From positions 1 to 64,000 of the forward strand of contig JBEKVV010000005.1 in assembly GCA_049513715.1 (NCBI GenBank): a stretch of DNA of 64,000 bases, in the 5' to 3' direction. Every line of letters starts with the position of its first letter. Within the stretch, counting starts at the first letter, position 1. The notes below the pieces were generated by a model. It worked only from the letters and a program-made list of their open reading frames with translations. It made no database searches and was not told where the DNA came from. Shown here in pieces: positions 4,806-49,497 of this stretch. This stretch comes from Candidatus Bathyarchaeia archaeon (GTDB lineage Archaea; Thermoproteota; Bathyarchaeia; 40CM-2-53-6). A program made the translations under genes and the position numbers.

Positions 4806-5095
4806 GAAGCCACTCGTCGGGAGAATTGTCGAGTCCGGAGGGACCACTGTAAATCCTCACTGGGTCTTAGCCCATTTGCTGGTTTCGGATATTCCCTTGC
4901 CAGCCTAAGCCTCGTTTCCTATCGGGCCGGTGGGACAAGTAGCCACGAACTCGGAACGTCAACACTTAGCCGTAACGACTCCGATTCGACTACCAAACTA
5001 GGCTATGTGTCTGTCGGTGCGTGGTCGTGGGACCACTGGGAATTCACCCCACTATTTGTTGGGGTTAACGCCTCTCTCCGACCGAGCTTCTAAGA

Positions 5096-6076
5096 ATGCG
5101 AGGTTCAATTTCCGATGCTCGCACCACTAGACCACACACAAAACCACTAAACCCATTACGTGTACAGAGAAGATTGGTAATCAAAGGATTGGTCAAGACG
5201 TCGACCACTACGCACAGCCCTAAGATTGCACCTGAGTATCTTCTAAAGCGAACAGCACGTCAATTGATTTCCTCCGCGATCCTATGCTGGGTTTGGATAT
5301 CATTGACTCTGGCTGTCGTGACAGAGGTGCAACTTGCGGCATTGTGGCGGCCAGTACTTCTAATAGCGTCTGCAGTCAGCTGCTTCGCTCTGATGAGGAA
5401 TCGAATCCTTGATCGGATTTACAGAAGAATTAGCTTTGCAACGCACTATCAACTCAAAGTCACCCTCGCAATCCCATTCAGTGTCTTCCTGGGGATGGTA
5501 ATTGGCTTAATGCTGTTTGGCCGGTGGGACTCGCAACGTGAAATATTGGGCCCCATAGTCGCTGTCGGATTGGTAATTTGTTCGATCCTATGGTCCATCG
5601 GGCCAATGGTTTCCGACAAAAGCGAAGCGAGTCTGCTGCTCACTCAATGCATTTACGAGATCGGGAAAGAGAACAAGATCCCAGATTGCTTTCGCTGGCT
5701 TGACCGCGGTTTGTATAAGATAATCAGAATTCTGAGACAGTATGGCATTAGAGTTCATGGTCCCACACTAAGATTGGGAGCAAGGTTGTATTGCCTTGAA
5801 CGAAAGACTAACCTGAACTCCTTATTGGTCCTGTCCAAAGCAATCATGAAGATGGAAGAATCTGAGCCATTTAGGGAACTCAGGGCCGCGGTCGAGGCGC
5901 TTACAGACACTGCAGAGAAGGCCATCGCTAGAGGCGTCTCACCGCAGCCTCGCATCGTCGACTACTTGGACTTCAGATATCTGTCCCTAAAGAATGTATA
6001 TCAGATGTTAGGCATAATTCTCGCAATACTCGCGATATTGATTTCCATAACAACTGGGCATCTCTCGTTGCGCTAG
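5096..6076 (+). CDS. hypothetical multi-pass membrane protein (true start probably TTG ~5189, downstream of J1)
   Basis: long ORF with about 5 hydrophobic segments. Confidence 0.6.
   Translation: MRGSISDARTTRPHTKPLNPLRVQRRLVIKGLVKTSTTTHSPKIAPEYLLKRTARQLISSAILCWVWISLTLAVVTEVQLAALWRPVLLIASAVSCFALMRNRILDRIYRRISFATHYQLKVTLAIPFSVFLGMVIGLMLFGRWDSQREILGPIVAVGLVICSILWSIGPMVSDKSEASLLLTQCIYEIGKENKIPDCFRWLDRGLYKIIRILRQYGIRVHGPTLRLGARLYCLERKTNLNSLLVLSKAIMKMEESEPFRELRAAVEALTDTAEKAIARGVSPQPRIVDYLDFRYLSLKNVYQMLGIILAILAILISITTGHLSLR
5103..5143 (+). repeat. junction J1 (tRNA-3'-mimic type)
   Basis: GTTCAAtttccgatGCTCGCACCActagacCACACACAAAA. Confidence 0.8.
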
Positions 6077-6274
6077 CACCGCGTCTCTGGCGCAACTGAG
6101 TTATTCGATCCTCTGATCATCGTTATGTTCCATAAACCGATAACCCTCACAAGTGGAAAAAGCCCTACTGAAAACTGTGACCGAAGAGAATGGGGATAGG
6201 ACCGGCGTTGTTCTAAAGTTTAGAATCGGGGTTATGCTATGCGGTTTACGTTATCTTAGAAGTCGCCGGTAGGC

Positions 6275-6303
6275 TTTTTGTGTGTGCGCACCAGCATACC
6301 CAC
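6275..6303 (+). repeat. junction J2
   Basis: TTTTTGTGTGTG CGCACCAGCATAC CCAC; 6279-6303 is the exact reverse complement of 12885-12909. Confidence 0.85.
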
Positions 6304-6475
6304 CCCTCCAGAAAAAATTCCGTTATTGCCAACCACCACAAACAGATCACCCAACCATCCACACCACGAAAATCCCCAGGCCCAATGCGATTATTTACGT
6401 ATGCGAGGGACCTAAGTAATGGCAGTCAGAGCACAGAGAAATTAAGTCAAACGGAGAGGAAAGGCGTTTGGTGAT

Positions 6476-7222
6476 TTGAGTGGAATTGATTGGCTACTCA
6501 ACAAAGTCAAGAAAGTCAGAAGTCGGCTCTCACTTGGAAAAATGCTATGGCTGCTTTTCGTTATACTGCTGATGGTAGGCACCTACTACGTGTTCAATCG
6601 TGATAGATATGTGGGGGCGTCTCAGGATTTTGGACCTGTGGAAGTCTCAGGGTCAGGTGGGCGGTCACCTTTCAATGTGACTCTGAGACTTCAATGCGGC
6701 TCCGAAGATAATTCGTACTTGTCAGACGTAGCAGACATCAATTGTGAGATTCTGACGAGATCTAAAGCGGAACCAATTCCAGAAATGGATTTCCGTGTTC
6801 TTATAATGAACGCGAGAAATCAGACAGTGGTAGAATGCAATAGCGCTGTGGAGAACATCAGTAATGTTTCCGAGAGCTCAAGCTTTTGTCTTAATTCTAT
6901 GGGCAATAGGTACTTCGAACTTCCTACGGGGGACTTCAGAGTAGTAATCAAACAATTTTCTATTATGGGAGGAGGAGTTGTCGTAACAAAAGCAAACCCC
7001 GTGATGTTCCGCGGAGAATTGCATGTAATCTCGGCCTTTGAGAAGCAAACTAGATTATCGCAGGACGGTACATCACTTGCCACATTCCTCGCCTTTCTAT
7101 TCATCATCCCAACCACGGTGTTCGCATTACGTTCTTTCTTGATGGAATCCACGGGCAAGAACAGAACAGAAGACTCGCCCGAGGACTCGAATCCCAACAA
7201 GGCGCGCTATTGTTTTGAATAG
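6476..7222 (+). CDS. hypothetical membrane-anchored protein
   Basis: 248-aa ORF with N- and C-terminal TM segments. Confidence 0.6.
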   Translation: MSGIDWLLNKVKKVRSRLSLGKMLWLLFVILLMVGTYYVFNRDRYVGASQDFGPVEVSGSGGRSPFNVTLRLQCGSEDNSYLSDVADINCEILTRSKAEPIPEMDFRVLIMNARNQTVVECNSAVENISNVSESSSFCLNSMGNRYFELPTGDFRVVIKQFSIMGGGVVVTKANPVMFRGELHVISAFEKQTRLSQDGTSLATFLAFLFIIPTTVFALRSFLMESTGKNRTEDSPEDSNPNKARYCFE

Positions 7223-7267
7223 TTCCAGAGCCCTCTCTGTTCTCGTCTTGATCGTTGCTGGCAGTTA

Positions 7268-7663
7268 ATGCCATTTGCCAGTTTTGCCCTGGCTAGTGAC
7301 CACGCAAGCCCATTTGATTTGACATTCACGAGAACTGCAACTTACACCAACACGACTACCTTGACAAGTTCAAAGGTGGTGATGATTACATTCATGCGGA
7401 CCAGTACACTTCACAATCTCTCGCGGGGTCTGGGCGTAACAATTGTCGGGTCTGCAGGCATCGGATCGACCATGTCGATTACCACGTACACCAATCAACC
7501 AAGCGATGGTTCGCCAGCTCTATTCGGTGCTTTGCTGCTTTGCGTGCTTGGGCTGGTGTTAGTGATGTTGCGGAAGCTCAGAAGGTCGCAAAAAGATCAT
7601 AGGTTGAAGATCTTGGTATCGATGGTGCGACCGGTTGAATCTGATCCGTCGGTTCGTGCGTAA
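7268..7663 (+). CDS. Thr-rich small membrane protein or fragment
   Basis: Thr/Ser-rich with a C-terminal TM and basic tail. Confidence 0.35.
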   Translation: MPFASFALASDHASPFDLTFTRTATYTNTTTLTSSKVVMITFMRTSTLHNLSRGLGVTIVGSAGIGSTMSITTYTNQPSDGSPALFGALLLCVLGLVLVMLRKLRRSQKDHRLKILVSMVRPVESDPSVRA

Positions 7664-7666
7664 TTC

Positions 7667-7695
7667 TGTGTGCGCGCACCACTAAACCCAACACA
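7667..7695 (+). repeat. junction J3
   Basis: TGTGTGCG CGCACCACTAAAC CCAACACA. Confidence 0.75.
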
Positions 7696-7751
7696 TCACA
7701 ACACAACCCAACAAAACTGGACAGTACAGCAAGTCAGCAAAAGCTACGTCA

Positions 7752-7782
7752 TGTGTGCGCGCGCACCATTGGACCACACACA
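7752..7782 (+). repeat. junction J4
   Basis: TGTGTGCGCG CGCACCATTGGAC CACACACA. Confidence 0.8.
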
Positions 7783-7855
7783 GGCGAAAACCATAGCCAC
7801 GTCAAACTAGATACAGTATGCAAGATGTGGTCGCCATTACCCTCTATGAGACGTT

Positions 7856-8977
7856 TTAGGAGTGCCTAACAATCCACGACCACAATGCTGCTCGCACCGC
7901 CTCGGTCATAGCTTCCGTAAGGCCTGATGTTTCGATTGTTTCAAAGGCTCCTGAACTGAAAACCTCCTGATAAGTAAATACGGGGGGCATTCCAACATGC
8001 TGATCTCCGAGTTGGAACTGATCTCTAAGTTCCTTCAAGACTGCGCTAGTTGGGATTCGGAAGCGCGATTCGAAATCATGTGCAAAACTGTTACGGAACT
8101 TCTCTAGGAAGTTGATGAAGTCATCATAGCGCGAGTTGCCCGTTCCTCCAAGCTTGAACTCTGGTGGAGCGTTTCTCCATACTTGAACCGTAGATGCTAG
8201 TTTGTCACGCAAGGATTGATCAAGTGCTTTATCGAAGAAATTCCTCAGCGCACGACGACTTCCATGCCTAACTAGATAGAACTCGTAAATGTCCAGGAGA
8301 CTCTTGGGACTCATTTCCTTCTGTTCTCGTATGGCCTGTTCCACTTCGGACACAGTGTCTTTCGCTTTCAGCCAGTCGCCGTACTGGAAATATGGACTTG
8401 ACCGACCTAGAGATTCGGCGCAGGTACATAGAATGAACAGGGCCCATGACGCTGCACCTCCTGGAAAGAGATTGGCAGTTTCTACTCCCTGCGTTTGAAG
8501 CAAATCGACAGCCTGGAGTCGATGTATGATGGATTCGATGAACCCTATCGGATGGTTCGCACGTTCCTCAGTTGATGGAACCTAATCATCTGGTAATTCC
8601 ATCAACGATTCTAGGCGTTTATCAAACTCGCTCCGACTGCAAACCATCTCTACCTGTTTGAAAATCGCATTTGACTCTGCTTCATAGCGACGTATTAGGA
8701 GAACAACTTTTGAATTCCAGGAAACATGGTAAATTCGAAGCTTCACAGCGCCTGCCAAGGGCGTGTTTGAAACACTCGTGAACGAATGATCATAACCAGA
8801 CTTTACTTCCAAGCCCTCGGCGTCTTCAGGTGGTTCGCTGCTAACTCCGAAATATAGAATTGCCCCTAATCTGAGAAGTTTAGGGTTTATTCCGAGGAGA
8901 CCCGATGCTTTGAGCTCCAGCCCATTATATCGAAATCTGAAAGGATCTAGCATTGAGTCCAACTCAGCCGTTCTCAA
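7856..8977 (-). pseudogene. putative HEPN-domain protein interrupted by an in-frame TAG at 8582-8584 (ORFs 8582..8977 and 7856..8503)
   Basis: both ORFs share a frame with 26 open codons between them; FRNSFAH RxxxxH motif in the C-terminal half. Confidence 0.55.
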
Positions 8978-9215
8978 GGATTAGACCATTCGCAACATTG
9001 TTTGGGTTGGCTTGCCTGCTTAAGTTTTGGTGTTTGCTCCTTCAATCGTACGAACCCCCAGAACCGTCCTCCATAAATGACAATCACAGAACAGCTTCGT
9101 TTCGCGGGAGTTCCGTCGCGTACTTCGCCACATATGTTTGGGTTGACGAATATCCGAGGACGGATTGTTGGAGGATCCCTCCCTTGACTTCAGATACAGA
9201 AAAAGGCACAGGGTG

Positions 9216-9254
9216 TTTTCGTGTGTGTGTGCTCACCAGCTAGTACCACACACA
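9216..9254 (+). repeat. junction J5
   Basis: TTTTCGTGTGTGTGTG CTCACCAGCTAGTAC CACACACA. Confidence 0.75.
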
Positions 9255-9328
9255 GAGCCACTCCGCACGAAAAGCACCGCAAGTCTGAAAGGAATGTTCC
9301 GAACTAAGACAGGACAGTTGAATCGAAA

Positions 9329-10885
9329 GTGCCGTCCTTTGCGCTGGTGGTTGATAGCCAAAATGTCTCTGGACGAATTGAAGGGCTAACAGCCGCCTTA
9401 GGACCTAGAGCTGGGGGCACTTCTTCGAGCGAACTAGAAAAGAAAGACTTTTCGAGAGGGAGCGCCGCGTTCGATCCTCGGACGCTAACGAATCCAAAGA
9501 CAAAACTAGCCATTGATTATGCGCCGGCAGGCAACGCAGAAGAAACTCTCGAATTCATTTCTCAAATCAAGAGCGTTTTTCCAGAGATGGCATTCGAATC
9601 CGAGTTTCTCCAACAATTAAGGTCAAGTGCCCAAAGTTTCAAGTATGTTCGGAGTCGCGGTTTCCTGAGCTTATGGAGAGAAGGCCTATTCGGTCAAGAC
9701 CTCGAATTCTTTCTGACTGACTCGCAACAGGACGACGATGTTGTCATAGCTGAAGATCACTTGGACACAAGCCGAAAACAAATCGTATTCGTCAGGACTT
9801 GGCAACAGATGTCGGCATTTGTCGAAAAAGTGCTTGAACCTTGGTTGGTGAGCGGGAAGGTCAAGCCTATTCAGGACTTTGGCGAGACCGCTGTTCCATT
9901 CTTTACGGGTCCCACCTCTCATGCATTGTCAGAATCGCGCCAGCGATGGCTGAGTCTTCCAGTTCCATCAATGATTTACTCGCGAGCATGGGCCGAACAG
10001 AAACCGGACTATCCCAACAAGGACTGGGCAATAATCAGTTCGAAGCGGACATATGCCAACCTTCACCACGCCTTCGCGGTTCTGCTGGAAAGATCCCAGG
10101 AACGTATTAGATTCGGTTGCATCTTTTGCCTTCCTGAAAATAGAGGCCGAGTTGTGGATGTTCATGTCGACCCGAACGAGACGAATTACAAATTGATTGT
10201 CCAATGTGAGACAACAGTTCCTCTCAAGCTCAAAGTGTCCTGTCTTCAGGATTCAAATGTCACTGAGGTATACAATGCCGATGCCTCTGCTACTCAGGCG
10301 TTTGCGGTTGACTACGCTCCCACAGAGGTCATAGCCGAACTACTGGGACCGGATTTGGTCGACAGATCTGCATATCACAATAGAGCGGGCGCCATCACAA
10401 CTTCCATTCAACCTAAGCCTCAGGTAGTGGTCGCGACTCAGATAGGTCTTCCAGTGCAGCCGCAGGTACTAGCTGGAGCAGAGACCATGATTGCTGCGTA
10501 CGCTCGATTCTTCATAATGGAGAACACATTGAGGGCGCTGGCTAAAGACAGATTCGTGAAGGCATTCGGTGTTCGGTGGGCGAAGGAATTAGCGCCCGTT
10601 CTAATTGCCGGAAAAACTCCCGGAGAACAGGCTCGAGTAAATCAGGTCTTAGTATCAAATCCTGATCAGATCCTTGAGCAGGTCTACTATCGCGATCTCA
10701 ATAGAATAGTTGACAAGTTCTGGTCCTTGTTCGAACCATTATTCCATGATAAGGATAGAACTCTGCTGAAGTTGAAAGAACTGGAGAATCTGAGGAACGA
10801 CATTGCGCACAACCGCGTCCTTGCTAATCACGACATAAAGCGAATTGAAGTATACTACATGGACTTGCTCAGCAATGTACCATGA
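9329..10885 (+). CDS. large protein with C-terminal Swt1-like HEPN domain
   Basis: YARFFIMENTLR...YYRDL..IV...W..F...LENLRNDIAHNR. Confidence 0.75.
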   Translation: MPSFALVVDSQNVSGRIEGLTAALGPRAGGTSSSELEKKDFSRGSAAFDPRTLTNPKTKLAIDYAPAGNAEETLEFISQIKSVFPEMAFESEFLQQLRSSAQSFKYVRSRGFLSLWREGLFGQDLEFFLTDSQQDDDVVIAEDHLDTSRKQIVFVRTWQQMSAFVEKVLEPWLVSGKVKPIQDFGETAVPFFTGPTSHALSESRQRWLSLPVPSMIYSRAWAEQKPDYPNKDWAIISSKRTYANLHHAFAVLLERSQERIRFGCIFCLPENRGRVVDVHVDPNETNYKLIVQCETTVPLKLKVSCLQDSNVTEVYNADASATQAFAVDYAPTEVIAELLGPDLVDRSAYHNRAGAITTSIQPKPQVVVATQIGLPVQPQVLAGAETMIAAYARFFIMENTLRALAKDRFVKAFGVRWAKELAPVLIAGKTPGEQARVNQVLVSNPDQILEQVYYRDLNRIVDKFWSLFEPLFHDKDRTLLKLKELENLRNDIAHNRVLANHDIKRIEVYYMDLLSNVP

Positions 10886-10894
10886 AAAGGTCAA

Positions 10895-11185
10895 GTGATA
10901 GCAATATTCGGTTCGACAGAATGTGACAGAGAACTGGATGATCCTCTGTTCATTTCTAGCAGATCTTCAGCGGTTGATCTTGCAGAACCTTCACCAAAGT
11001 TAGTGGGACAGGATGACCGTGAACTAAGAGCTAGGATTCTCAGGATGACTCAGTCCGAGGCAAGAGACCTTGGCATCGGGAAGAGCACGCTTCATTACCT
11101 ACGCAAAAGAACGCGCAGTAGGACACAGATGAGGCTTTACTCTAATACACACGGTAAACTACAACTTCTCTGCTCCAAGACATGA
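10895..11185 (+). pseudogene. cas1: C-terminal HTH fragment of a casposon-type (solo) Cas1 / casposase
   Basis: DLAEPSPKLVGQDDRELRARILRMTQSEARDLGIGKSTLHYLRK resembles the C-terminal HTH extension of family-2 casposases; catalytic domain absent. Confidence 0.7.
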
Positions 11186-12252
11186 CAAACCGCAAATTCT
11201 GCGTTTTCTGTGGCGCAGAGCCAAAGACACACAGCCGAGAGCACATAATTCCCCGATGGCTGATTGAGCTTACGGGCGACCCGAAGAGAAAGGCGATTTT
11301 TGGTCCATTTTGGAATACTGCGAAAAGAAAGTTCGAAATGCACACATTCGCTTTTGATCAATTCACGCTCCCTTCATGCGCAGCATGCAACATGGAGTTC
11401 TCGAAGCTTGAGAAATCCACAAAGCAGATTATAGAGTCTATTTTGGAAGTGAAGCCGCTTGACTCTAGAGATTTGCTTGTTCTTCTGTCGTGGCTAGACA
11501 AGGTGAGGGTTGGGTTATGGCTTGCATACTACCATGTTCAAAAGAACGTTTGGCAAATTGTTCCACAGTTTTTTGTCAAGTCACGGATGGACATGTCGGA
11601 TCGAATGGTACTCATCTATAGGTCAGATCTACGAGACCCACGATTACGTGTCGAGGGGCATACGGTCCCTGCATTCCAATACCAACCAACTTGCTTTGTG
11701 CTCAGTGTAAACGAATTCATTCTGTTCAACATCTCTACCAGCTTCTTACTCTCCGAACGAATGGGACTCCCCTATGCCCATCGACTGGCCTACACGAATA
11801 CTCCTCAAATCGAGACAACCCTGGCTAGAGGAAGGAATCGCATCGTGTATCCTTTGGTCAGATTCAAATATGATCATCGTTGCGCCGAGATATTCCAGCC
11901 GATATTCACCTCTTTAGTTGGAGATGCATATTACCAAAACGAACATGTGCAGTCGATTAGCCTTGACCATTCGAAAGGAGTTGGAAGGGTCTTCTACTAT
12001 GATAAGCCATTCGTACAGGAGTACCCCAACTCCAAGTCGATCAGTTGGGTGCCTAAATGGACGTGGAGGGATGACGCTCTGTGGAAAGTTATCCGAAAAC
12101 AGTGGCTAGAAATCCAATTACATCTTTTTGAGTACGGCCCATGCGCGACCAAGATAAGTCTTGACCATGTCGACAAACCAAAGAAACAATTAGTCCAATC
12201 ACAAGTGCAGACATCAAAGAAGATAAGCGGAATGTTCCTCGACTCGATTTGA
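11182..12252 (+). CDS. HNH endonuclease-domain protein
   Basis: FCVFCG...SREHIIPRWL...SCAACN. Confidence 0.75.
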   Translation: MTNRKFCVFCGAEPKTHSREHIIPRWLIELTGDPKRKAIFGPFWNTAKRKFEMHTFAFDQFTLPSCAACNMEFSKLEKSTKQIIESILEVKPLDSRDLLVLLSWLDKVRVGLWLAYYHVQKNVWQIVPQFFVKSRMDMSDRMVLIYRSDLRDPRLRVEGHTVPAFQYQPTCFVLSVNEFILFNISTSFLLSERMGLPYAHRLAYTNTPQIETTLARGRNRIVYPLVRFKYDHRCAEIFQPIFTSLVGDAYYQNEHVQSISLDHSKGVGRVFYYDKPFVQEYPNSKSISWVPKWTWRDDALWKVIRKQWLEIQLHLFEYGPCATKISLDHVDKPKKQLVQSQVQTSKKISGMFLDSI

Positions 12253-12271
12253 GAAATATTCCAAAGAAGGA

Positions 12272-12300
12272 TTTTGTGTTTGTGCGCACTAATAGACCCC
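12272..12300 (+). repeat. junction J6
   Basis: TTTTGTGTTTGTG CGCACTAATAGAC CCC. Confidence 0.7.
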
Positions 12301-12322
12301 AGTATGAAAGAGAGCTATCAAG

Positions 12323-12847
12323 ATGCAAGCTGATTTCGACCGTTTTATGACAGGCCTGGAGATCGCGGGTTCAAGGATTGACGCGCACTATTTCCAAATC
12401 AGAGTTTCCGGAGCAGAGGACCCAATATATCGTGAACGAGTCTATTGCTATGAATTATATCATCAGCTGCGCGTGGCGTTAGGCGACATTTTCGAATACA
12501 AACTCGATGGAGAACTTGACAAGAAGAATCACTCAATTCTAGTGAGATTAGGTGCAAGGAAGCCTGATCTTGTCGTGCACGTCCCCGGTAATATGGATGG
12601 AAACCTCGTCGTGATTGAAGTCAAGAAGGTTGAGACAAGAAAGCAGCTTCTTGAAAACGATCTTTGCAAATTGATGAAGTTCTTGGATGACGGTAATTAC
12701 TTTCGGGGGATTATGCTAGTATATGGTGATGGCTATCAGAAACTGCCGGATTGGATCAGAGACAAAGTCCTTCAGTTACAGGAGTCACGCCTCGCTCTGG
12801 TGTGGCATGCAGGACCTGGAGAAAGCCCCAGGATTATCAATGGTTGA
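12323..12847 (+). CDS. PD-(D/E)XK nuclease-like protein
   Basis: ERVYCYELYHQLR, GELDK, KPDLVVH...VIEVK. Confidence 0.7.
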   Translation: MQADFDRFMTGLEIAGSRIDAHYFQIRVSGAEDPIYRERVYCYELYHQLRVALGDIFEYKLDGELDKKNHSILVRLGARKPDLVVHVPGNMDGNLVVIEVKKVETRKQLLENDLCKLMKFLDDGNYFRGIMLVYGDGYQKLPDWIRDKVLQLQESRLALVWHAGPGESPRIING

Positions 12848-12878
12848 ATTTGAACAGTCGTCGTTTGTCGTCAGAAAA

Positions 12879-12915
12879 GTGTGTGTGGGTATGCTGGTGC
12901 GCACACACACCAAAA
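12879..12915 (-). repeat. junction J7 (inverted; most symmetric copy)
   Basis: reverse complement reads TTTTG GTGTGTGTG CGCACCAGCATACC CACACACAC. Confidence 0.85.
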
Positions 12916-12920
12916 CGTCG

Positions 12921-12966
12921 GTTCAAACTACGTTGCTCGCACCATTAGAACCACACGCACCGAAAA
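12921..12966 (+). repeat. junction J8 (tRNA-3'-mimic type)
   Basis: GTTCAAactacgttGCTCGCACCAttagaacCACACGCACCGAAAA. Confidence 0.8.
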
Positions 12967-13194
12967 CCAATCAAACCCAGACGCCGATGAAGGCGCGGGA
13001 GAATTCCCACGTAATAATTAAGACCGCTATCAACAAGACTCAGGCCATGGCATACTTCACGATTTCAAATCTCGAAAGACGCAACGGATGCAAAATGAAA
13101 ACGTATCAACAATATGCCAGAATGTGGTACAGAAATTGGATTAGGTTATTATGTCCGTGTAGATGGTTGCAGCCCTTGATTTCGGAGGTTTTGT

Positions 13195-14481: not shown

Positions 14482-15457
14482 TATTGATGCTGAGTCGATG
14501 GCCCAACAGGCGCTTGAGGCGTGGGGACTCCGGTCATCCAGGCGCGAGCTGTTTTCTGTCTCGGAGAATATTGTATTTCGTGTCGATACCGGTGACGGCA
14601 AGGCACTGCAGCTATGTCTTCACCGTTCGTGGTATCACAATTTGCAGGAACTCATCTCCGAACGCATGTGGACACGCGCTTTAAGCGACTACGGCATCAG
14701 TACGCCAGTCCCGGTTCCTGCCCTGGACGGTAATGACTACGTTCTGGTTCGCGGCAGTCTGAATGGTGAGGCTCGCTACGCAGGTATGAATCAATGGGTT
14801 GATGGTGAAACAATGCACCATATCATTGCCCGCAGCGAGGATTTCACGGTTTATTTCAGGCGCCTGGGCAAAATGGCTGCGCGGATACACAACCAGGCAT
14901 CGTACTGGGAGCCGCCTGCGGGGTTCAGGCGCCATTCCCTAGACGCTGATGGACTAATGGGGCTATCGCCATGGTGGGGCCCGTTCTGGGCAGCACCGTA
15001 CCTCACCGCAAACGAACGGGTAAGATTCGAGCATCTTCGTGAAAGGGTTCATAACCGGCTGTTGTGGCTGGACACGGGCCCGGATACTTACAGCATGATT
15101 CATGCGGACCTGTGCCCGGGAAACCTGATAATCAACGGCGAACATCTGCATATCATTGATTTTGACGATGCCGGGTTCGGTTGGCACATGTATGAGCTGG
15201 CGGCAGGACTGTATAATTACCAGGATCATCCACGTTTTTCCGAAATGGTGAGCGCCGTGTTCGAAGGTTATCGAGAGGTCAGGCAGCTCGATGCAGAATC
15301 GGCTGCGCTGCTGAACCTGTTTTTACTGGTTAGGGCACTGGCAATCGTCGGCTGGCGTGCCGCCCGGCCGGAGCTGTCAAAACCACCAGAGTGGAGCCGC
15401 GGCCCCAAATGGACGGTCAATAAGGCCCTTTCCCTCTCCGCCGAGCTGGGTCTTTAA
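14468..15457 (+). CDS. APH / type II homoserine kinase-like phosphotransferase
   Basis: SENIVFRV, IHADLCPGN, IIDFDD; overlaps the aminotransferase. Confidence 0.88.
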   Translation: MGTVNIDAESMAQQALEAWGLRSSRRELFSVSENIVFRVDTGDGKALQLCLHRSWYHNLQELISERMWTRALSDYGISTPVPVPALDGNDYVLVRGSLNGEARYAGMNQWVDGETMHHIIARSEDFTVYFRRLGKMAARIHNQASYWEPPAGFRRHSLDADGLMGLSPWWGPFWAAPYLTANERVRFEHLRERVHNRLLWLDTGPDTYSMIHADLCPGNLIINGEHLHIIDFDDAGFGWHMYELAAGLYNYQDHPRFSEMVSAVFEGYREVRQLDAESAALLNLFLLVRALAIVGWRAARPELSKPPEWSRGPKWTVNKALSLSAELGL

Positions 15458-15465
15458 CCTTCACT

Positions 15466-15798
15466 GTGACAGGCTCAAAGACTTCCACTGTCTGGACGAC
15501 AGTCACGCAAATCGTGGGCGGGGTTTCCACAAGCGTGGTCTATACAACCAGCACTAGCACTGTAACCGTCACCAATGCTTCGACCACGATGTCAACAACT
15601 ACGACTCCATCTACGACCAAGTCAACAACCACTCCTGTAACCACATCAACGCCCCATTGCAGGGAATATGCACCGCCCCTGTTCCCTAGTTTCACATCAA
15701 TCGTCGCTTCCTCGGGCTTGCTAGGAGTCGCCGTAACCATTGGGAGGAGAGCCATTCCAATAATCGACGCTCATAAGCAAAGAGATCCCGTTTTTTGA
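15466..15798 (+). pseudogene. Thr-rich cell-surface protein fragment
   Basis: T/S low-complexity stalk plus hydrophobic end, no clear N-terminus. Confidence 0.35.
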
Positions 15799-16350
15799 TG
15801 GGTTTTCGTTCGTTGACGAATAATGGCCCGAGAGGGAGAGAGATTTGCACGGGGGAAGATGGCGGACATTGCAATATGACCAAGACCCCCGAAATCACTA
15901 GCACCACTAGCACCTCGGACGCAGTCCTCTAGAAAAGTGGGGACGAAAGGTCAGGGAGAACGAAAGTATCGTACGCACAGCTATCGCAATTCACGCAGAT
16001 ATCGCACAGGGGTTTTCTCTGTGGTAATCTCGCATAGTGGAACCCATCTCACTTTGCGCTCCGTGAGTCGCTTAAGGTCGGCTGATGTGGAATTTTCTCC
16101 CCTCTAGGAATATCCACAGGCCGTTCCCGTTGTTGGTTCTCTGAATCCTATCCGCGTACGCCCACGGCATCACAAAATGCGTGCATTTCGTCGTTTCCTT
16201 TTCAGCGTTCGACTCGTCCTTCTGCGCTGAAAGATGACGCGGTGAAGTTTTCGGGTTAGTCTGCGGTCAGGCGTTTCTTGGGACCGAATTTCGTAACCGT
16301 TAGGGCGTACTTTCCACTTCTCCAGGTAGAGGAGGTTCCAATCATTCTTT

Positions 16351-17133
16351 GTGTCGTCGATGATTCGTCGGAGGTCCAATGCTTCCCTCCGGAAATCTGA
16401 GCCGAGAGCGGATTGGATCATGTTCAGCAGCAAGTCGGGTAGCTTCATTTTCGGAGTTCAGATTCCCGCTCGGATAGTAGGATTAGTGGGGTTCTCTGCG
16501 GCCGTCTACAATTCAAGTTGGATACAGAATGATCGCATCTGGTTGTCCTCAGAGCTCACAGTCAACGAGTTCTACAGTACGCAAGACGATGTCACGCTGG
16601 TCTGGCTTCAACCTAATCTTAACTCGACTAGTTACGAGATCATGGAAATCGGGTTCTATTTCTTGTGGAAAAACAGTGTTGGTCAGCTGGACTTCTCGGA
16701 ATACAGCCTTATCCTTCCTGTTAGTAGCGTTCCTGAATATTCAATCTACTACTTTCCGCCGAGTCCGTTCGCCACTACCCAGGAAATTCTAATAAAATCG
16801 ATCCTTACTTCATACAACATCAATTCGCTTATCGTTTGGGTATCTTTGCCCCCGTCAGGTGTGGTAACAAGCGCCTTTCCAGAACCTGACGCGTTCATTC
16901 CTCAGTCTTCTAGGTTATTGCTTGTCTGGAATCAAACCCGAATATCCGAATCAAAACCGCTGCAAACTTCGATCAGTGTGACGTTCAGGATGCCCACTCA
17001 AGCGTTGCAGCGCGACGAATCGGTCTTCTGGGCAGGTATAATCTTGGGTGTTGGGGCTGCATTGGCCGTTGAGAGTTTGGAGTTGTTTGCACGACCTCGC
17101 GTCAGGAGCAAGAATCGGAAACAGGTGGCCTGA
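16351..17133 (+). CDS. hypothetical membrane-anchored protein
   Basis: beta-rich body, C-terminal TM and basic tail. Confidence 0.5.
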   Translation: MSSMIRRRSNASLRKSEPRADWIMFSSKSGSFIFGVQIPARIVGLVGFSAAVYNSSWIQNDRIWLSSELTVNEFYSTQDDVTLVWLQPNLNSTSYEIMEIGFYFLWKNSVGQLDFSEYSLILPVSSVPEYSIYYFPPSPFATTQEILIKSILTSYNINSLIVWVSLPPSGVVTSAFPEPDAFIPQSSRLLLVWNQTRISESKPLQTSISVTFRMPTQALQRDESVFWAGIILGVGAALAVESLELFARPRVRSKNRKQVA

Positions 17134-17377
17134 TGGTCTTGAGCCACCACCAAGATTCGCCACGTAGAAAAACGCAAACAAAGACCTAACGCAAAGGCGT
17201 GAAACAGATGGAGTGTTCAATGTGCCGGGCAATGAAATTTCCAGTTCTAGTCAGGATATTGTGGAATGCATGATAGCGGAGTCATAGCGTTGACTTCCGA
17301 GCGTTTGGATAATCGTAATCCGTCCGTTTTCTCCTTTCAAACATATTCCAGGTCAGATAAGTCAGGGCATGCCTGGG

Positions 17378-17611
17378 TTAGGTGGATTGAGGGGGCTTGC
17401 TTACCGCATTTTCTTGGTCTTTGGTTAGCTCATCGTATTGTTGCGGGTGTTTTTCCTTCCAGTGGTCTTCCATGAGTTTGAGTATTTCGTGTACGGCTCG
17501 ATGGTTCGTCCATCTTCTGTTTTTGCATTGTTTGCAGACCCATTCGTTCTTGTCTGATTCGTAGTCAGCCATTTCCGTGAAATAGGGTTTGTTGGTCACT
17601 TTTCCTTTCAA
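17378..17611 (-). CDS. small C2H2-like zinc-finger hypothetical protein
   Basis: WVCKQC...HWKEKH. Confidence 0.35.
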   Translation of the reverse strand: MKGKVTNKPYFTEMADYESDKNEWVCKQCKNRRWTNHRAVHEILKLMEDHWKEKHPQQYDELTKDQENAVSKPPQST

Positions 17612-17878
17612 GGTTTCTCATTCAGACTCTTCTTGGGTTGATCTTCGGATTTCTTGGTTACTCGTGATTGGTTTTGAACGTGCTCAGCTGGGTTTTCAGC
17701 GAGTTCTGCTTCAACAATCCAGAATCTAGGGCTCTTTGGGTTTTTCAGGTCTAAGAGCATCTGTAATGCGACCACTCTTTGCCTTGGATTGCACTTTCTT
17801 TTTCACGTCAAAGCAGACTACTTGACTGCACTTTCAATTTATGTAATTCCATAGCGCAAACCATGCCAGTGAGAAAGA

Positions 17879-18532
17879 GTGAGCGAATCGTATAATAACT
17901 TCAACAAAATGGCAACCTCAATACTTCAGGAGAATGACAAGTTCTGCAAGTCAAACGACGTTGCGCAAGAGACTGTTATTGAAATTCTGAAGCTCATGAA
18001 GGATGCCATCAATTCCGTTCAGTGGAATGCAGACCTCTTTCCAAAGTTTGCTTTCGTAAACTGTCTGCGCTCTGTTCTAGTCCCAATGTCAAACGCGATC
18101 TATTACAACTTCATGGGAGGCAACCTTCCAGCGTGCTTCGTACAGTTGCGTATTTTGCTGGAGCAACTGGTGAAATGCTTCCTCTCCGACAAAGATTACC
18201 GTGACATCTCACGCTTCCAAGAGAAATTGAGGAGAGTCGAAGATCAAAAGCTCCACTTAACTGAAGCCGTCATTGCCGTCGAACCAAACGCCGAGTCCTT
18301 GTGGAGAAATCTCTCGAACGATTGGGTTCATATGAAGTATTTAGAAAGGCATGTGAGAGTTCTCCTGGAGAGGGGCGACGTGCTAGGATTCAACGTCGTA
18401 GTCCCGATCGATTTCAGTGAAACTGAGCTACCTGAAATACAGGAACTGGGCGAATCTATAAGCCAATTCAGAGCGATCCTAGCAGAAACGGTAGGAAAAT
18501 GGAAAACTGAAGTTTTCAGGAGTCACCAGTGA
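17879..18532 (+). CDS. hypothetical helical protein (possibly HEPN-like)
   Basis: LRILLE and LWRNLSNDWVH motifs; 1 nt from the next gene. Confidence 0.5.
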   Translation: MSESYNNFNKMATSILQENDKFCKSNDVAQETVIEILKLMKDAINSVQWNADLFPKFAFVNCLRSVLVPMSNAIYYNFMGGNLPACFVQLRILLEQLVKCFLSDKDYRDISRFQEKLRRVEDQKLHLTEAVIAVEPNAESLWRNLSNDWVHMKYLERHVRVLLERGDVLGFNVVVPIDFSETELPEIQELGESISQFRAILAETVGKWKTEVFRSHQ

Positions 18533-18533
18533 C

Positions 18534-19253
18534 ATGTCAGAATCAGTTTACGTGCAACCCTTAGCTGTCGAACCAGCCAATCCTACGACACTTGAAGAAC
18601 TTCAAGAAACATACCAGATGAAGCGTGCATTGATTCAGCAGAGAATTGAAGAGCTAAGAAAAGGATGGGAGAAAAGTGATAATGGTATTTTCGCGGAACT
18701 CTGTTACGGCATTCTACTGGCGAGAGAAGATGCTGCTAAAACTCTCCCCTTGGTTGCTGAGTTGGAGAGTAGTAGGCTGTTATTTGACGGTTCAAGCGAC
18801 CAAATTCAAGAATACCTCAGACAGCACCACTATGCCCTTAGAAACAGGTCTAAATACATCGTAGATTGGCGCGGCCGACTCACTGATCAAGGATCGCTAA
18901 GAATCAAGAACATTCTCGAAAACAAATTCAGAACATCGAAGGGTTGGCGCATCTATGCTGCCAGAGAATACTTGGTTTCGCAACATTCTGGAGTTGGTTG
19001 GAAAGTGGCAAGTCAATTCCTAAGAAACATCGGAATCGGATTAGATTGCGGACTGGCACTTCTGGACAGACATATCCAGAAGGAGTTGAGGAAGTTTAAC
19101 TACACCCCGCGAATCTACAAGCAAGCCTTGTGGAAGTCCAAATATCTTCAATACGAGCAGAAAATGCAAGCAATGGCGGAGAACAGCGCAATTCCAATCG
19201 ACGACCTAGACCTTTTGATTTGGTCAAACAGAACTGGTCTGATAATCAAGTAG
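18534..19253 (+). CDS. ogg: N-glycosylase/DNA lyase (OGG2-type 8-oxoguanine glycosylase)
   Basis: FAELCYGIL, HhH GVGWKVASQFLRNIG, LDRHI, C-terminal TGLIIK. Confidence 0.8.
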   Translation: MSESVYVQPLAVEPANPTTLEELQETYQMKRALIQQRIEELRKGWEKSDNGIFAELCYGILLAREDAAKTLPLVAELESSRLLFDGSSDQIQEYLRQHHYALRNRSKYIVDWRGRLTDQGSLRIKNILENKFRTSKGWRIYAAREYLVSQHSGVGWKVASQFLRNIGIGLDCGLALLDRHIQKELRKFNYTPRIYKQALWKSKYLQYEQKMQAMAENSAIPIDDLDLLIWSNRTGLIIK

Positions 19254-19354
19254 GCTTGCGCTACGACTCAGTATCTTGTAGCTGACTTTTCTACCTCCTC
19301 ACTAAAACGAAGCTAAATAGCTCCTCCATTTAGACTTGTCAAGCTTGCAAGCCC

Positions 19355-20815
19355 ATGCCAAACTTAGCGCCTGAATTCGTCCGAAAACTCATACAATCAG
19401 GCATCGAGACAACAAAGTTGGAGCACAAGCTAAGAATCGACATTCATTCCAACAATGGCAAAGCCGAACTGATCAAAGACGTTCTTGCCATGGCAAACGC
19501 CTCTTCCAGCGGCGAAGACACTGGGTACTTGATAATTGGATCGTCAAAGGGTTTTGCATATGACATTTCCGATCTCAAGCTGGACGATGCGACGCTTCAG
19601 CAAATCGTGAATTCAAAAGTGCATCCTCCAATCACCTTCTCCTACACAGAAATCGAAATTCAAGCAGGGATCAGGGTTGGCGTATTTGAAATCCCGAAAA
19701 GTAACGCCAAACCACATTGTGTAAAGCAAGACATCATGGACAATGAAGAAATTCTCCTCCACGAAGGAGAGTGCCTGATAAGACAAGGATCGAGCACAAA
19801 GGAAGCTATGAAGGAAGACTTCGACCAGATGTACGACGAATATGTTGAGTCTGAGCGCCGAAGGATAATGAACGAAGCATTCGAATATGTGCAACGTCAA
19901 AACGTACCGAGTGAGAAGAAGACTACAGACCTCACATACGTTACCTCAGCAAGTCCAAAAGAAATCTCCAATACGGTGATCGAGCTTCTTCGTCAAGGCG
20001 ATACTGTTGGAATGGCGTCGATAGTCAACAACCTCCGTGGAGAACTGATCTCAAGGTGGAAAGATACTGTTGACAAGTCGGAGGAACAAGTCGCCACAAT
20101 AAAGCACACTTTCATCGAACCCGTTATCTCAAGGCTGACCGCGTTGGGAGCTCTCCTCGTTGTTTACGATGCCGAGCAACCCTTCAAGGAGCTCCTTGGT
20201 GCATTCGCGGCCATCTACGAACTCGCGAACAATCTTTCCTATGGAAGACAGCCTGGTATGACAACTAAGAAGCATCTGAGCTGGACTGTGCCCTCGAAGG
20301 AAAGCATGAAGTCTCTATACGCTATAGGAGCAGTTGCTGCATTCAAAGGCAGGCTGAAATTCATCAGACTCATGCTTGACACGAAGATTACTGCAACCAG
20401 ATATTTCACTAACGTAGAGCCCATAATGTCGCATCCGCTCTATGAGTTCACGAGTGGCGAAGGAGATTTCACGGCGTTTTTCGAAGAGGCTAGAAATGAG
20501 ACCTTGGGTTCCAAACAACTCTTCGAATACTTCGATGGAGACAAAGAGAAGCTGATAACAGCATTTTGTGACTTCGACTTTCTCATAATGGCGGCTTTGA
20601 TCCATGAGAATCCCGAAACTGAGAGGTTTCCGAACTTTGCGCGCTACTATCGCAGGAGAATAGAACCGCTCCTGAGTAGGATTTCAAGCGACCCAGGGAG
20701 CTACGTAACAATACTTGGAGACAACCCGACCGGAGCTGTCGATAGTTGCATAGGAAAAGTCAACGAACTGGCTACTCGCGAACCCATAACTTTGATGGGA
20801 TGGAGAGTCCATTAG
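19355..20815 (+). CDS. Schlafen/AlbA_2 domain protein
   Basis: ETTKLEHK, ELIKDVLAMANA, GYLIIG, IRQGSST. Confidence 0.8.
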   Translation: MPNLAPEFVRKLIQSGIETTKLEHKLRIDIHSNNGKAELIKDVLAMANASSSGEDTGYLIIGSSKGFAYDISDLKLDDATLQQIVNSKVHPPITFSYTEIEIQAGIRVGVFEIPKSNAKPHCVKQDIMDNEEILLHEGECLIRQGSSTKEAMKEDFDQMYDEYVESERRRIMNEAFEYVQRQNVPSEKKTTDLTYVTSASPKEISNTVIELLRQGDTVGMASIVNNLRGELISRWKDTVDKSEEQVATIKHTFIEPVISRLTALGALLVVYDAEQPFKELLGAFAAIYELANNLSYGRQPGMTTKKHLSWTVPSKESMKSLYAIGAVAAFKGRLKFIRLMLDTKITATRYFTNVEPIMSHPLYEFTSGEGDFTAFFEEARNETLGSKQLFEYFDGDKEKLITAFCDFDFLIMAALIHENPETERFPNFARYYRRRIEPLLSRISSDPGSYVTILGDNPTGAVDSCIGKVNELATREPITLMGWRVH

Positions 20816-20835
20816 AATTAGTGCATAAGTTCGAG

Positions 20836-21276
20836 GTGGGGCTAGATTGGGGTCGGAGTAATCGTCGAGAATTGAGGCGTTTAGCAGATAGCCCCACCAT
20901 CATTTGATAGAGAGTCCCTTCGGCCCCACGTGGTTGCCCACTTCTTCCACTTCCTATCGAAAGAGGTTCCTGCTAAGGAGTTGAACAAGTGTTTGATATT
21001 TCGCCCGACGATCCAACACTTAGGCTGGCCCTGAAAGCTCTTCAGGCTTAGCCAAACGATCTTGTGTGAACTACGGCGTACCTCGCGGGCGGAAAATCCT
21101 GGTTTGCGCACACCGCTAAGGCCAGTACGGGAACTCCGGAACGGTAACGGTCGTGGTTGTGTAGGTTGGAGTTGTTGTTGTGGTGGGGCCGAAGGTTCCC
21201 ACTTGATGCATCAAGTGGGGCTATCCTAATCGGGGCTCATTTCGAGCCGTTTCCTCCTGCTCGTGCTTAGCCCCAC
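20836..21276. repeat. 94-bp diverged inverted repeat (20836-20929 / 21183-21276) with six GCCCCAC boxes and a perfect 22-bp palindrome at 21198-21219
   Basis: GTGGGGCTA-N42-GATAGCCCCAC-N19-CCTTCGGCCCCAC in both arms with identical spacing. Confidence 0.8.
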
Positions 21277-21283
21277 GCGGTGC

Positions 21284-21469
21284 CTATTTCCTCATGAGTT
21301 TGACTTTGCTGTCCAAGACTTTGCTGTATGCGTCGAGTTTCATGTTGATCTCGATGCGTGGGCCAATGTCGGGTTCGCTTAGCATTGCGAGGCGTAGTTC
21401 GTTGTTTTCTGGCAGGTTCTTTCTCGCCCACTCTTTCGCGGGCACGAAGCTGCTTGTTTCGAGCGGCAT
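21284..21469 (-). CDS. small protein of a type seen in archaeal integrated elements
   Basis: KEWARKNLP...LRLAMLSEPD pattern; recognised from memory only. Confidence 0.4.
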   Translation of the reverse strand: MPLETSSFVPAKEWARKNLPENNELRLAMLSEPDIGPRIEINMKLDAYSKVLDSKVKLMRK

Positions 21470-21475
21470 GAATGA

Positions 21476-21745
21476 TCACTTTTTGCGTTTTCTTCCTCCT
21501 AGTTTTTTCACCCGGCGTTTCCGTTTCCGCAGCAGTGTTTCTCCGAGTGCGTTGGCGATCGCGTTGTCAATTTTGTAGTGTAGTAGTTCGCTCATCTTTT
21601 CGTCTGGAAGTATGGCTAGGTCGCCAAAGCCGGTGATTTGCTCTGTGGTGTAGCCGGAGGTTTGCAGAAAGACCGCCCGCCCTGAACGCAATAGCTCGTC
21701 TGCTTTTTCGCGATCAGATTCGACTTCAGCCAAAGCGGACACCAA
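21476..21745 (-). pseudogene. fragment resembling the C-terminal tail of archaeal tyrosine integrases
   Basis: FLQTSGYTTEQITGFGDLAIL..E.M.ELL; no catalytic domain. Confidence 0.35.
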
Positions 21746-21783
21746 GCTGTGTTTGTCGGATAGGTTTCTTATTTGGTTATAGA

Positions 21784-22131
21784 TTGAATCCCTATCGGTG
21801 CTGGCTTATGACAAATGAGCGTTGGCTTCGTTGGGCAATACGGAAACACTTCCGAGATCGGGGGCTGACTGTGAACATGCGTCCTGTCAAAGTTGGAAAT
21901 GCTACAGTTGACAGGGAAGTCGTTGGACACGGATGGAGAATGGCTCTTGAAATTAAGAGTACAAAAGACGATCTCATTCGAGGGATTGGTCAATGCACAG
22001 AAGCCTTAGTCAGGGGTTATCAATCGGCGGCACTCGTCACATCCGTTCAACGTGCGAAGCGAATTAAACCCGAAGTTTTCCATGAACATCTCGTTTTGTT
22101 AGGTATCGATGCTAAAGGGATGGTTCACTAA
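21784..22131 (+). CDS. small PD-(D/E)XK-like nuclease (possibly degenerate)
   Basis: VD...ALEIKS..DDLIRGIGQC. Confidence 0.5.
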   Translation: MNPYRCWLMTNERWLRWAIRKHFRDRGLTVNMRPVKVGNATVDREVVGHGWRMALEIKSTKDDLIRGIGQCTEALVRGYQSAALVTSVQRAKRIKPEVFHEHLVLLGIDAKGMVH

Positions 22132-22442
22132 GTCTACCCATGAATGCCATTTAGAGTGTCGCGGGTTCATGCTCTGGGGTGGGATTTTCACCCCCGTGGG
22201 TGTGTCCGAAACACCCCACGGTTGGATTTGAACCGAGGGGGGCGAATTGAATTCACCCCGCGAACCTAGGGGTGTCTTTTCATCTTTCGAAAAATCTTCT
22301 GTCAAAGCTCACACCGAAGCGCTATTGGACGATTCAGAAGTTAAACTTCTGGGTGACCTCATTTTCCGATTTTCATTATGATCACGAAATTTCCAAAGTT
22401 CAAATTTGTTCTACCGCAACAATGATGCACACAAAAAGAGGA

Positions 22443-22482
22443 GTTCAAGATCAGCCGCTCGCACCAGCAGACCCACACACAC
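22443..22482 (+). repeat. junction J9 (tRNA-3'-mimic type)
   Basis: GTTCAAgatcagccGCTCGCACCAgcagacCCACACACAC. Confidence 0.8.
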
Positions 22483-22554
22483 TTCGACATGCAAACGACA
22501 ACGGTCCGACGGTCCGGGGGCCGCACCAGTGAGACTACAGACTAAGCGCGACTT

Positions 22555-24657: not shown

Positions 24658-24982
24658 GTTGCGATTTACCTAAACCCGCAGCCCTACTCAGGGTTACAGA
24701 AAAATGGTTTACGGTTCCCGACTTGGTGAGCCAACACGTTCCAATTGAGCCACACCACTTGACACACCCCGGCGCTTAGGATCACAATAGGTATGATGGA
24801 TTCGGAGCGCGTTACAAAATCGGTCGAAGCATTTCCTTAACTATCGACAAGGCCGAAGGGACCCACTGCGAGGTTCTCGATGCTTATGCTGGGTCACTTT
24901 CACTCAACCCTCCATGAACACTCGCAATCTCACCCTCGAATAACCACTTGCTACCTTGGAAACGTAGGATGGGCAGGGAACT

Positions 24983-27851: not shown

Positions 27852-28091
27852 ATGTCTAAGCGCACGACCATTCTGCTCGACGATGATGTTTATGAAAAGC
27901 TCGTCAACGAGAGCATGAGAAAATACAGGACTACCAAAGCTATGTCCAAGGTGGCAAATGAATTGCTCAAGAGGGCGCTAAAGAGCCAGACGAAGGTTTT
28001 AGAATTGATCTCTTCGAAAAAGATTGCCAAGACGACCAATAAAGAGTTCGAGTCATTTCGCAGGGAACTGTCCAGACGGTTCGAAGCTTGA
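27852..28091 (+). CDS. RHH/CopG antitoxin (VapB-like)
   Basis: KRTTILLDDDVYEKL; overlaps a PIN-like start. Confidence 0.7.
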   Translation: MSKRTTILLDDDVYEKLVNESMRKYRTTKAMSKVANELLKRALKSQTKVLELISSKKIAKTTNKEFESFRRELSRRFEA

Positions 28092-28125
28092 TCCTTGATA
28101 CAACATACATGCTTCCTCTAGCGAG
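28088..28125 (+). pseudogene. first ~12 codons of a PIN/VapC toxin
   Basis: MILDTTYMLPLA PIN N-terminal motif, then unrelated sequence. Confidence 0.55.
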
Positions 28126-28153
28126 CAATTGCGCAAGCCACGTGGGTGGGCGT

Positions 28154-49031: not shown

Positions 49032-49089
49032 TGCCAAGTAACGCTTAAATGGAACTCTCAGGGATTGGGCTGGCTGGTCGTTATCAAAA

Positions 49090-49413: not shown

Positions 49414-49497
49414 AATCCGCCGTTTCTTTTGACACCGTTGAATTAAAGTACGTAGAAACATCTCTTTAGGCAGAGCCCAACATTTGGTGGTTAATGT

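Follow-up and report, generated by a model that had tools for sequence, protein, structure and literature searches.

Junctions of a gene-module array in a Bathyarchaeia genome resemble the insertion scars of family 2 casposons

Casposons are defined as self-synthesising transposons. The universal gene set given for family 2 consists of Cas1, PolB, HNH and two HTH proteins (PMC9939771, PMC6563490). As reported for the family 2 casposons of Methanosarcina mazei, insertion produces 14-bp duplications whose invariant 5'-CGCA overlaps the last bases of tRNA-Leu, integration needs the duplication together with about 30 bp of upstream tRNA sequence, tandem pairs share one duplication, and solo ends are left behind (PMC6977970, PMC4779613). 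In the account of engineered mini-casposons, ends, duplications and cargo alone are sufficient for translocation in vivo, excision leaves a single target, and one element turns up at a different site together with a reverse-complemented copy of its own target (PMC10359463). The descriptions that we consulted present casposons as sparse, in tandem pairs at most; in our literature search we found no description of casposons of Bathyarchaeota and nothing on polymerase-less casposons, and no title proved relevant to non-autonomous casposase cargo elements. Here we analyse a stretch of 64,000 nucleotides (the window; positions 1 to 64,000 of contig JBEKVV010000005.1, assembly GCA_049513715.1) from a Candidatus Bathyarchaeia archaeon, in which a first-pass annotation made from the letters alone had described, at 5103-22482, an array of small gene modules separated by a junction repeat. 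We propose that this junction is very probably the insertion signature of a family-2-like casposon lineage, and the window a decayed, immobile stack of polymerase-less elements.

The genome carrying the window is called G000 and its contigs C1 and so on, the window lying on C5; other G numbers denote relatives. The assembly measures 2.79 Mb in 11 contigs, with a completeness of 99.4% and a contamination of 8.79%. It was compared with 40 related genomes, 22 of them from the same genus, and the sequence was read directly at window positions 5000-13100 and 22200-25000.

Junction anatomy and casposase elements of the genus

All nine junctions listed by the first-pass annotation (J1 to J9) were found at their positions, far above chance: the pattern GTGTGTGCGCACCA, with up to two mismatches, has 6 matches against 0.43 expected, and none of 100 shuffles reaches 6. 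Every junction contains a core of 14-15 bp, CGCACCA-N3-KACC. To the right of the core lies a casposon left end, CACACACAC-AAAA, usually CACACAC(AC)-AAAA. To its left, J2 to J7 have a right end, TTTT-GTGTGTGTG, that is TTTT-GTGTGTG(TG), and J1, J8 and J9 have a leader of about 30 bp that is spaced like the 3' end of a tRNA (GGTTCAAnTT-N4-TGCT). Genome-wide, the left-end consensus is CACACACAc..aaa (n = 75) and the right-end consensus CACACACACaaaAa (n = 32). At array ends (J2, C1 620042 and C4 204646), sequence conservation stops exactly after the 14-nucleotide core.

In its consensus form, gacGGTTCAAaTTccG.tGCc, the leader is similar to the 3' end of the tRNA at C3 86163-86290. In J1, the spacing is that of a T-loop (7), a T-stem (5), an acceptor (7), A and CCA. 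In the C3 tRNA itself, acceptor stem and T arm are perfect, and a core and a left end come after its end, ...CCCGGCGGCCGCACCA; ARAGORN calls it Val(CAC) with an intron, a call that is unreliable in this multi-intron lineage. The same CCCGGCGGCCGCACCA end recurs at about C1 573334, where the core that comes next is degenerate, a left end is present, and ARAGORN calls no tRNA. Other tRNAs ending with CGCACCA are unoccupied. ARAGORN found no tRNA in the window, J1 and J9 included; Rfam gave no match in the window or in ten motif-rich loci, multi-intron tRNAs probably escaping Rfam. A conserved T-arm-like hairpin in the leader was considered and rejected, since by eye the N4 positions vary without compensation.

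Identical 14-mers flank four complete casposase elements in relatives, with the correct junction types: leader, core and left end on one side, right end and core on the other. These elements measure 8,615 bp in G013:C3 (14-mer CGCACCACTATACC), 17.5 kb in G002:C38 (14-mer CGCACCAGCATACC), 7.1 kb in G004:C45 and 11 kb in G014:C3. The last two have GC-rich ends made of CCGCC repeats, as does a fifth element that is cut by a contig end (G003:C14). These ends lie at the same 14-bp target, indicating that a second casposon end type uses the target of the CACACAC type; it was also seen at L047, and no convincing copy of it was found in G000.

Cas1 (PF01867) is present in 12 of the 22 same-genus genomes, with up to 11 matches in one of them, in open reading frames (ORFs) of about 400-440 amino acids that match the family with E about 1e-50. 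When one of these proteins was compared with solved structures, the best match was the M. mazei casposase 6OPM (E 6.9e-71); the alignment spans residues 9-404 and includes the C-terminal HTH. A junction lies within 3.1 kb of Cas1 at 8 of 10 Cas1 loci of relatives. The casposase is the sole gene common to all ten loci; winged-HTH genes adjoin Cas1 at several of them, and many ORFs there have no Pfam family. No PolB (PF00136) or HNH was detected by Pfam among the ORFs of the five bounded elements, many of which have no family. The single PolB found within the ten Cas1 loci was rejected as an element gene, as it has an 80.6%-identical syntenic host orthologue in G000. By Pfam, the lineage's elements thus lack a polymerase gene. 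Their cargo is variable and in relatives includes a TIR-domain protein, AIPR, a methylase with ParB-N and an aldehyde ferredoxin oxidoreductase cluster.

In G000 itself, where Pfam gives no Cas1 match, tblastn with nine casposases of relatives detected five fragments: one in the window (10949-11167) and the others at C1:893791-894261, C1:619104-619280, C1:46608-46784 and C3:524394-524676. Four of the five, including that of the window, lie within motif clusters, which with 2 kb of padding make up 7% of the genome. G000 also contains, at C5 167006-168047, a casposase-less element of 1,027 bp with one arginase-family gene, both ends and a perfect 14-bp duplication. Nothing else in G000 is as clean a candidate for a natural mini-casposon; no DNA counterpart and no empty site of this cassette was found in the 22 genus genomes.

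In the mechanism that we propose, a Cas1-type integrase with a C-terminal HTH would recognise a leader of about 30 bp, resembling the T arm and acceptor of a tRNA, together with a 14-bp target starting with 5'-CGCA and made of the final seven tRNA nucleotides, including CCA, followed by N3-KACC. The casposase would join the inverted ends of the element (CACACACAC-AAAA...), each to one strand of the target, with a stagger of 14 bp, and the 14-mer would be duplicated through gap repair. Re-use of the site would stack elements, right end, core and next left end then abutting, which would account for the near-palindromic form of such junctions. Elements devoid of casposase would need to be moved in trans. 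The recognition of CGCA and of upstream tRNA sequence is taken from published biochemistry, and mobilisation in trans from the published mini-casposon work. At 5.1-22.5 kb of the window, decay and rearrangement would have cut such a stack, housed in a 23-kb strain-specific island, to modules of one to three genes.

The array and its island

The junctions of the array lie on the plus strand, except J7. J1 (5103-5145) consists of a leader (5103-5119), the core CGCACCACTAGACC (5120-5133) and the left end CACACACAAAACC. J2 (6275-6300) has the right end TTTTTGTGTGTG and the core CGCACCAGCATACC (6287-6300), without a CACACAC run after it, and J3 (7667-7688) has a degenerate right end and the core CGCACCACTAAACC (7675-7688). 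In J4 (7752-7792), a right end, the core CGCACCATTGGACC (7762-7775) and the left end CACACACAGGCGAAAACC follow one another; J5 (9216-9256) is built in the same way from the right end TTTTCGTGTGTGTGTG, a core of 15 nucleotides starting with CTCACCA (CTCACCAGCTAGTAC, 9232-9246) and a left end. The weakest copy, J6 (12272-12298), has the right end TTTTGTGTTTGTG and the core CGCACTAATAGACC (12285-12298), which starts with CGCACTA. The inverted J7 (12879-12911, minus strand) reads GTGTGTGTG / GGTATGCTGGTGCG / CACACACAC, with its core at 12888-12901. Leaders recur in J8 (12920-12968; core CGCACCATTAGAAC at 12938-12951, left end CACACGCACCGAAAACC) and J9 (22443-22482; core CGCACCAGCAGACC at 22460-22473, left end CACACACAC). 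J2 and J7 have the same core on opposite strands, and all other window cores differ from one another. An extra, degenerate leader-type junction is present at 22396-22439 (plus strand; core CGCAACA... at 22415). Two weaker copies had also been proposed: the one at about 22520 is a core-like sequence, CGCACCAGTGAGAC, that lacks inverted ends, and the one at 24751 was not supported.

Module 1 (5134-6286, plus strand) contains a single membrane-protein-like ORF without Pfam match. The perfect 11-bp inverted repeat ascribed to it (CACACACAAAA at 5133-5143, TTTTGTGTGTG at 6276-6286) is exact, as is the 10/13 match of its flanking 13-mers; matched inverted ends are found in modules 1 and 4. The 'empty' module between J3 and J4 measures 73 bp (7689-7761, plus strand). 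Module 5 encodes a Swt1-like HEPN protein of 518 amino acids (9329-10885, plus strand; PF18731, E 5.9e-7) and carries the casposase remnant, at 10949-11167 on the plus strand, inside an ORF at 10895-11182. With the nine casposases of relatives, tblastn aligns this remnant to amino acids ~331-404, with 37-52% identity and E from 1e-9 to 1e-15; only the C-terminal, HTH part, about 71-84 residues, survives in the window. Short DNA matches of 10971-11114 adjoin Cas1 genes in G017, G013 and G010. Farther right, a block of 9.4 kb (12952-22414, plus strand) has a left end, and no right end was found for it; it encodes an aminotransferase III, an APH-type kinase, an Ogg glycosylase and a Schlafen/AlbA_2 protein, which together with the HEPN protein are the few Pfam matches of the modules.

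No DNA counterpart of the module genes was found in the 40 relatives, in which solely the junctions match. A 356-amino-acid module protein has matches in none of the 40 and the HEPN protein has one weak homologue among them; there is thus no second module copy with which movement as a unit could be tested. We infer that the small modules of the window arrived by casposase action, and likewise their order. Since only the tail of a casposase is left and the genome has no intact one, the stack would now be immobile, and the array is most simply regarded as a fossil.

The array occupies part of a variable island of about 23.3 kb (4806-28087) that lies between a radical-SAM gene (3729-4802) and a gene at 28088-28663. 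In comparison with 8 loci of relatives, DNA synteny is lost at about 4805-4809; at 7 of these loci it is regained, at about 28289. The flanking genes are 30-65 bp apart in the same-genus genomes G016, G017, G012 and G006, and neither a tRNA nor the motif was found in this gap; other inserts occupy the same spot in two relatives. The junction scan gave no match between C5 22460 and 95999, which leaves the window without junctions from 22.5 to 64 kb, in agreement with the absence of the motif from the core region of about 36 kb noted at first pass.

The gene at 22558-24657 (minus strand) encodes a protein of 700 amino acids that combines a KaiC-like ATPase domain with TPR repeats. Several loci of G000 and of relatives have paralogous 3' ends, and a 68%-identical homologue sits within a casposase element of G014. 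A 59-bp sequence at 22176-22234, which lies downstream of paralogues of this gene, recurs many times in G000 (for example C2:56677-56734) and throughout the genus, with 81-98% identity. It contains a T-arm-like palindrome, and ARAGORN and Rfam call nothing there.

The stretch is present whole in 24 listed peat and wetland metagenome runs, any of which may be its source, so these runs are not independent. Contigs of four runs span 4001-12907 and 12880-22735 (12880-22221 in one run) with 100% identity. The shuffled, empty or circular forms of modules for which the first-pass annotation proposed to search the reads do not appear in these contigs, which present a single fixed form and are blind to rare variants. 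The Logan contigs of all four runs end or start inside J7 (12880-12907), indicating that this repeat disrupts short-read assembly, and many motif clusters sit at contig ends of the assembly. The listed 'joints' have a shorter side of just 23-31 letters; as at least one of them (12910 to 22460) matches another motif locus of G000 (about C5 214483), they were taken as repeat artefacts and not as empty sites or circles.

Motif distribution and alternative explanations

In the whole assembly, a loose scan gives 117 junction-like sites in about 25 clusters, and 75 sites have at least two of the three junction features. The intergenic location claimed for the window junctions holds genome-wide: long ORFs, which cover 73% of the genome, contain just 5 of the 75. 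The motif is strongly clustered, which favours the first-pass proposal over the evenly spread terminator or transcription-factor site that it had named as the alternative. A strict motif (a 21-mer with at most one mismatch, its reversed pattern serving as control) has 40 matches in this genome and from 2 to 40 in each of 20 of the 22 same-genus genomes. Outside the genus, a single genome, from another family of the order, has 20 matches, and 18 others have none; the reversed control has no match in any genome. Cargo at the other clusters of G000 is miscellaneous (GNAT, glyoxalase, nitroreductase, zinc-ribbon and KaiC-like proteins).

A separate repeat of about 50 bp, composed of a GGGG-loop-CCCC hairpin followed by a ACCGGTACATATAA box, was noticed at C5:166936-166990. 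It also occurs at C2:8870, C11:8466, C7:9593, C4:230691, C5:206437 and elsewhere, with at least 12 copies in G000 and many in relatives, often directly upstream of leader-type junctions and in one case near a tRNA. A promoter is one possibility, a portion of a tRNA-like gene encoded by the opposite strand another.

The casposon explanation is built on features observed directly: the anatomy and clustering of the junctions, the casposase homology, the perfect duplications around casposase-bearing elements of relatives, the casposase remnant of the window and the lack of PolB by Pfam. The casposase idea, already put forward at first pass, is borne out by the core and inverted-end anatomy, by the duplications around same-genus casposase elements and by the tail in module 5. 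Several observations weigh against it. First, no intact casposase was found in this genome by Pfam and tblastn, and Pfam detects no Cas1 in the motif-rich genomes G021, G018, G012, G016 and G019 or in G034. Second, no perfect duplication surrounds any window module, J1 and J2 matching at 10 of 13 positions; the empty sites of relatives at the island locus have no target, so that the first arrival of the island is unexplained. Third, neighbouring junctions are co-oriented in 26 cases and opposite in 28, whereas simple leader-proximal stacking predicts otherwise, and identical cores were found in 2 of the 26 adjacent co-oriented pairs, which is not an enrichment (permutation mean 0.86, P 0.21). 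Fourth, about 22 of 43 leader-type sites have a left-end stub 8-30 nucleotides upstream, forming tandem or inverted units of 43-63 bp, and the casposon explanation cannot account for the origin of these core-plus-stub units. Finally, the first automated search detected both ends within 20 kb at 1 of 10 Cas1 loci; longer stretches and the second end type were used to find further duplication-bounded casposase elements. The unlike cores, the mixed orientation and the stub units may result from decay, from recombination among more than 100 similar repeats, from target copies carried by the elements themselves (as reported for M. mazei), or from insertion into a target borne close to an element end.

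A rival reading is that the small modules never moved as units but are deletion or rearrangement products of a few large casposons, shuffled via the >100 junction repeats. This is a sub-variant of the casposon explanation and involves no other enzyme; we consider it a real possibility, if short of probable. Differing flanking cores, mixed orientations and the lack of enrichment of identical neighbouring cores all agree with it, as does the truncated casposase of module 5. Similarly, two paralogous GNAT cassettes (C1 457-933 and C3 83522-83980) have no more DNA in common than the 23-nucleotide junction. In G013 (C8:11000-30999), a 6-kb stack of junctions and casposase joins two regions that lie on different contigs of G000, syntenic with window 49087-55297 and with C2:446531-454056, which is consistent with rearrangement at junction repeats. 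Against it stand the 1,027-bp arginase-family element with its perfect 14-bp duplication and both ends, the matched inverted ends of modules 1 and 4, and engineered mini-casposons, which are reported to move in trans (PMC10359463).

At the other extreme, the polymerase-less casposase might be a leader-directed gene-capture integrase that stacks mini-casposons of one to three genes, with defence or metabolic cargo, at tRNA-like pads. If true, a Cas1 enzyme would have produced the functional equivalent of an integron, and the system would be a living example of the proposed step from casposons to CRISPR arrays, the 43-63 bp core-plus-stub units included. We consider this unlikely. The CRISPR- or integron-like cassette system proposed at first pass was an overstatement for this array, given the lack of an intact casposase, the differing cores, the mixed orientation and the single form in contigs.

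A tyrosine recombinase had been envisaged as well. Here the junction would be the attachment site of a tRNA-targeting integrase, displaced tRNA 3' fragments marking the borders of piled elements. The leader and core do mimic a tRNA 3' end, and a SAM-domain tyrosine integrase of 319 amino acids (C5:218633-219133) adjoins a tRNA and a motif cluster, partial copies of the end of this tRNA being present at C5 182533 and C6 5070. However, the whole genome has just two PF00589 matches above the family cut-off, neither of them within the window, for about 25 motif clusters. What is repeated is a 14-nucleotide unit with inverted element ends, with no long identical direct repeat, and perfect duplications belong to elements that bear a casposase and not an integrase. 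The crossover region of tyrosine recombinases is 6-8 bp, which the 14-nucleotide spacer exceeds. We thus regard a tyrosine integrase as very improbable. The integrase at C5:218633-219133 (minus strand, SAM-like N-domain), beside a tRNA ending with CCCCCGCACCA (tRNA end C5 220117), and the partial tRNA-end copies look like a separate, classical integrase element family.

Least credible of all is a regulatory or structural palindrome (a terminator, transcription-factor site or repetitive extragenic palindromic-like element) unrelated to transposition: the motif is intergenic (5 of 75 inside long ORFs) and GTGTGTG...CACACAC, flanked by T and A runs, can form a hairpin, but it is confined to clusters that make up 7% of the genome and is absent from the 36-kb core part of the window, its leader-type copies are not palindromic, the T run precedes and does not follow the hairpin on both strands, no Rfam family matches, and the motif bounds casposase elements with duplications.

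Comparison with known systems

Like islands targeted to tRNAs by tyrosine recombinases, the clusters accumulate accessory genes at sites derived from tRNA 3' ends; they differ in enzyme class and site anatomy, with no integrase inside and no long identical att repeats. The resemblance to integron cassette arrays, which the first-pass annotation had drawn, is in layout only: cassettes of one to three genes lie between short imperfect palindromes, and cargo includes GNAT, glyoxalase and nitroreductase genes. The array has no IntI-type integrase, the nearest PF00589 match being at C5:218633, and the enzyme associated with the junctions is of Cas1 type. The sites measure 32-50 bp, against 55-140 bp for attC, and lack the R''/L''-L'/R' architecture of attC; leader-type copies are not palindromic.

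With CRISPR arrays, the junction arrays share an integrase of the Cas1 family, and a leader beside the target, which is duplicated each time an insertion occurs. They differ in that the duplicated unit is 14 nucleotides, against repeats of 25-50 bp, and in that the inserts are kilobase-sized genes with inverted ends of their own. Among CRISPR genes, Pfam detects no Cas1 in this genome; no search was made for cas2 or effector genes. Movement of the small modules in trans would mean that a Cas1-type integrase is able to build arrays of several gene cassettes beside a leader; if true, this would bear directly on the origin of CRISPR arrays and would offer a site-specific integrase with a compact target.

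The engineered mini-casposons of M. mazei Go1 (PMC10359463) have the same plan of ends and duplications around arbitrary cargo, the casposase being provided in trans. By analogy, a target copy carried by the element, even in reverse complement, could explain the unlike and inverted cores observed here. Those elements are laboratory constructs, whereas the present ones are natural and we infer their movement as units, with one clean case (C5 167006-168047).

The closest system is the family 2 casposons, represented by M. mazei (MetMaz, 6OPM). Shared features are a Cas1 fused to a C-terminal HTH (E 6.9e-71), inverted ends, a 14-bp CGCA duplication at the 3' end of a tRNA, upstream tRNA sequence (about 30 bp) that is apparently conserved here as the leader, tandem elements sharing one duplication, and solo ends. 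In contrast to family 2, the five duplication-bounded elements have no PolB or HNH by Pfam, the conserved ends are just about 9-15 bp, the core overlaps seven tRNA nucleotides including the encoded CCA instead of four, and there are tens to >100 junctions per genome, in stacks of up to about 10, instead of pairs. The array of the window is most simply a fossil of what would be a family-2-type lineage without polymerase gene and with variable defence and metabolic cargo, which has left tens to >100 scars per genome, and whose scars mark most accessory islands of a widespread peat archaeon. In conclusion, all features of the site fit family 2, and the gene set differs.

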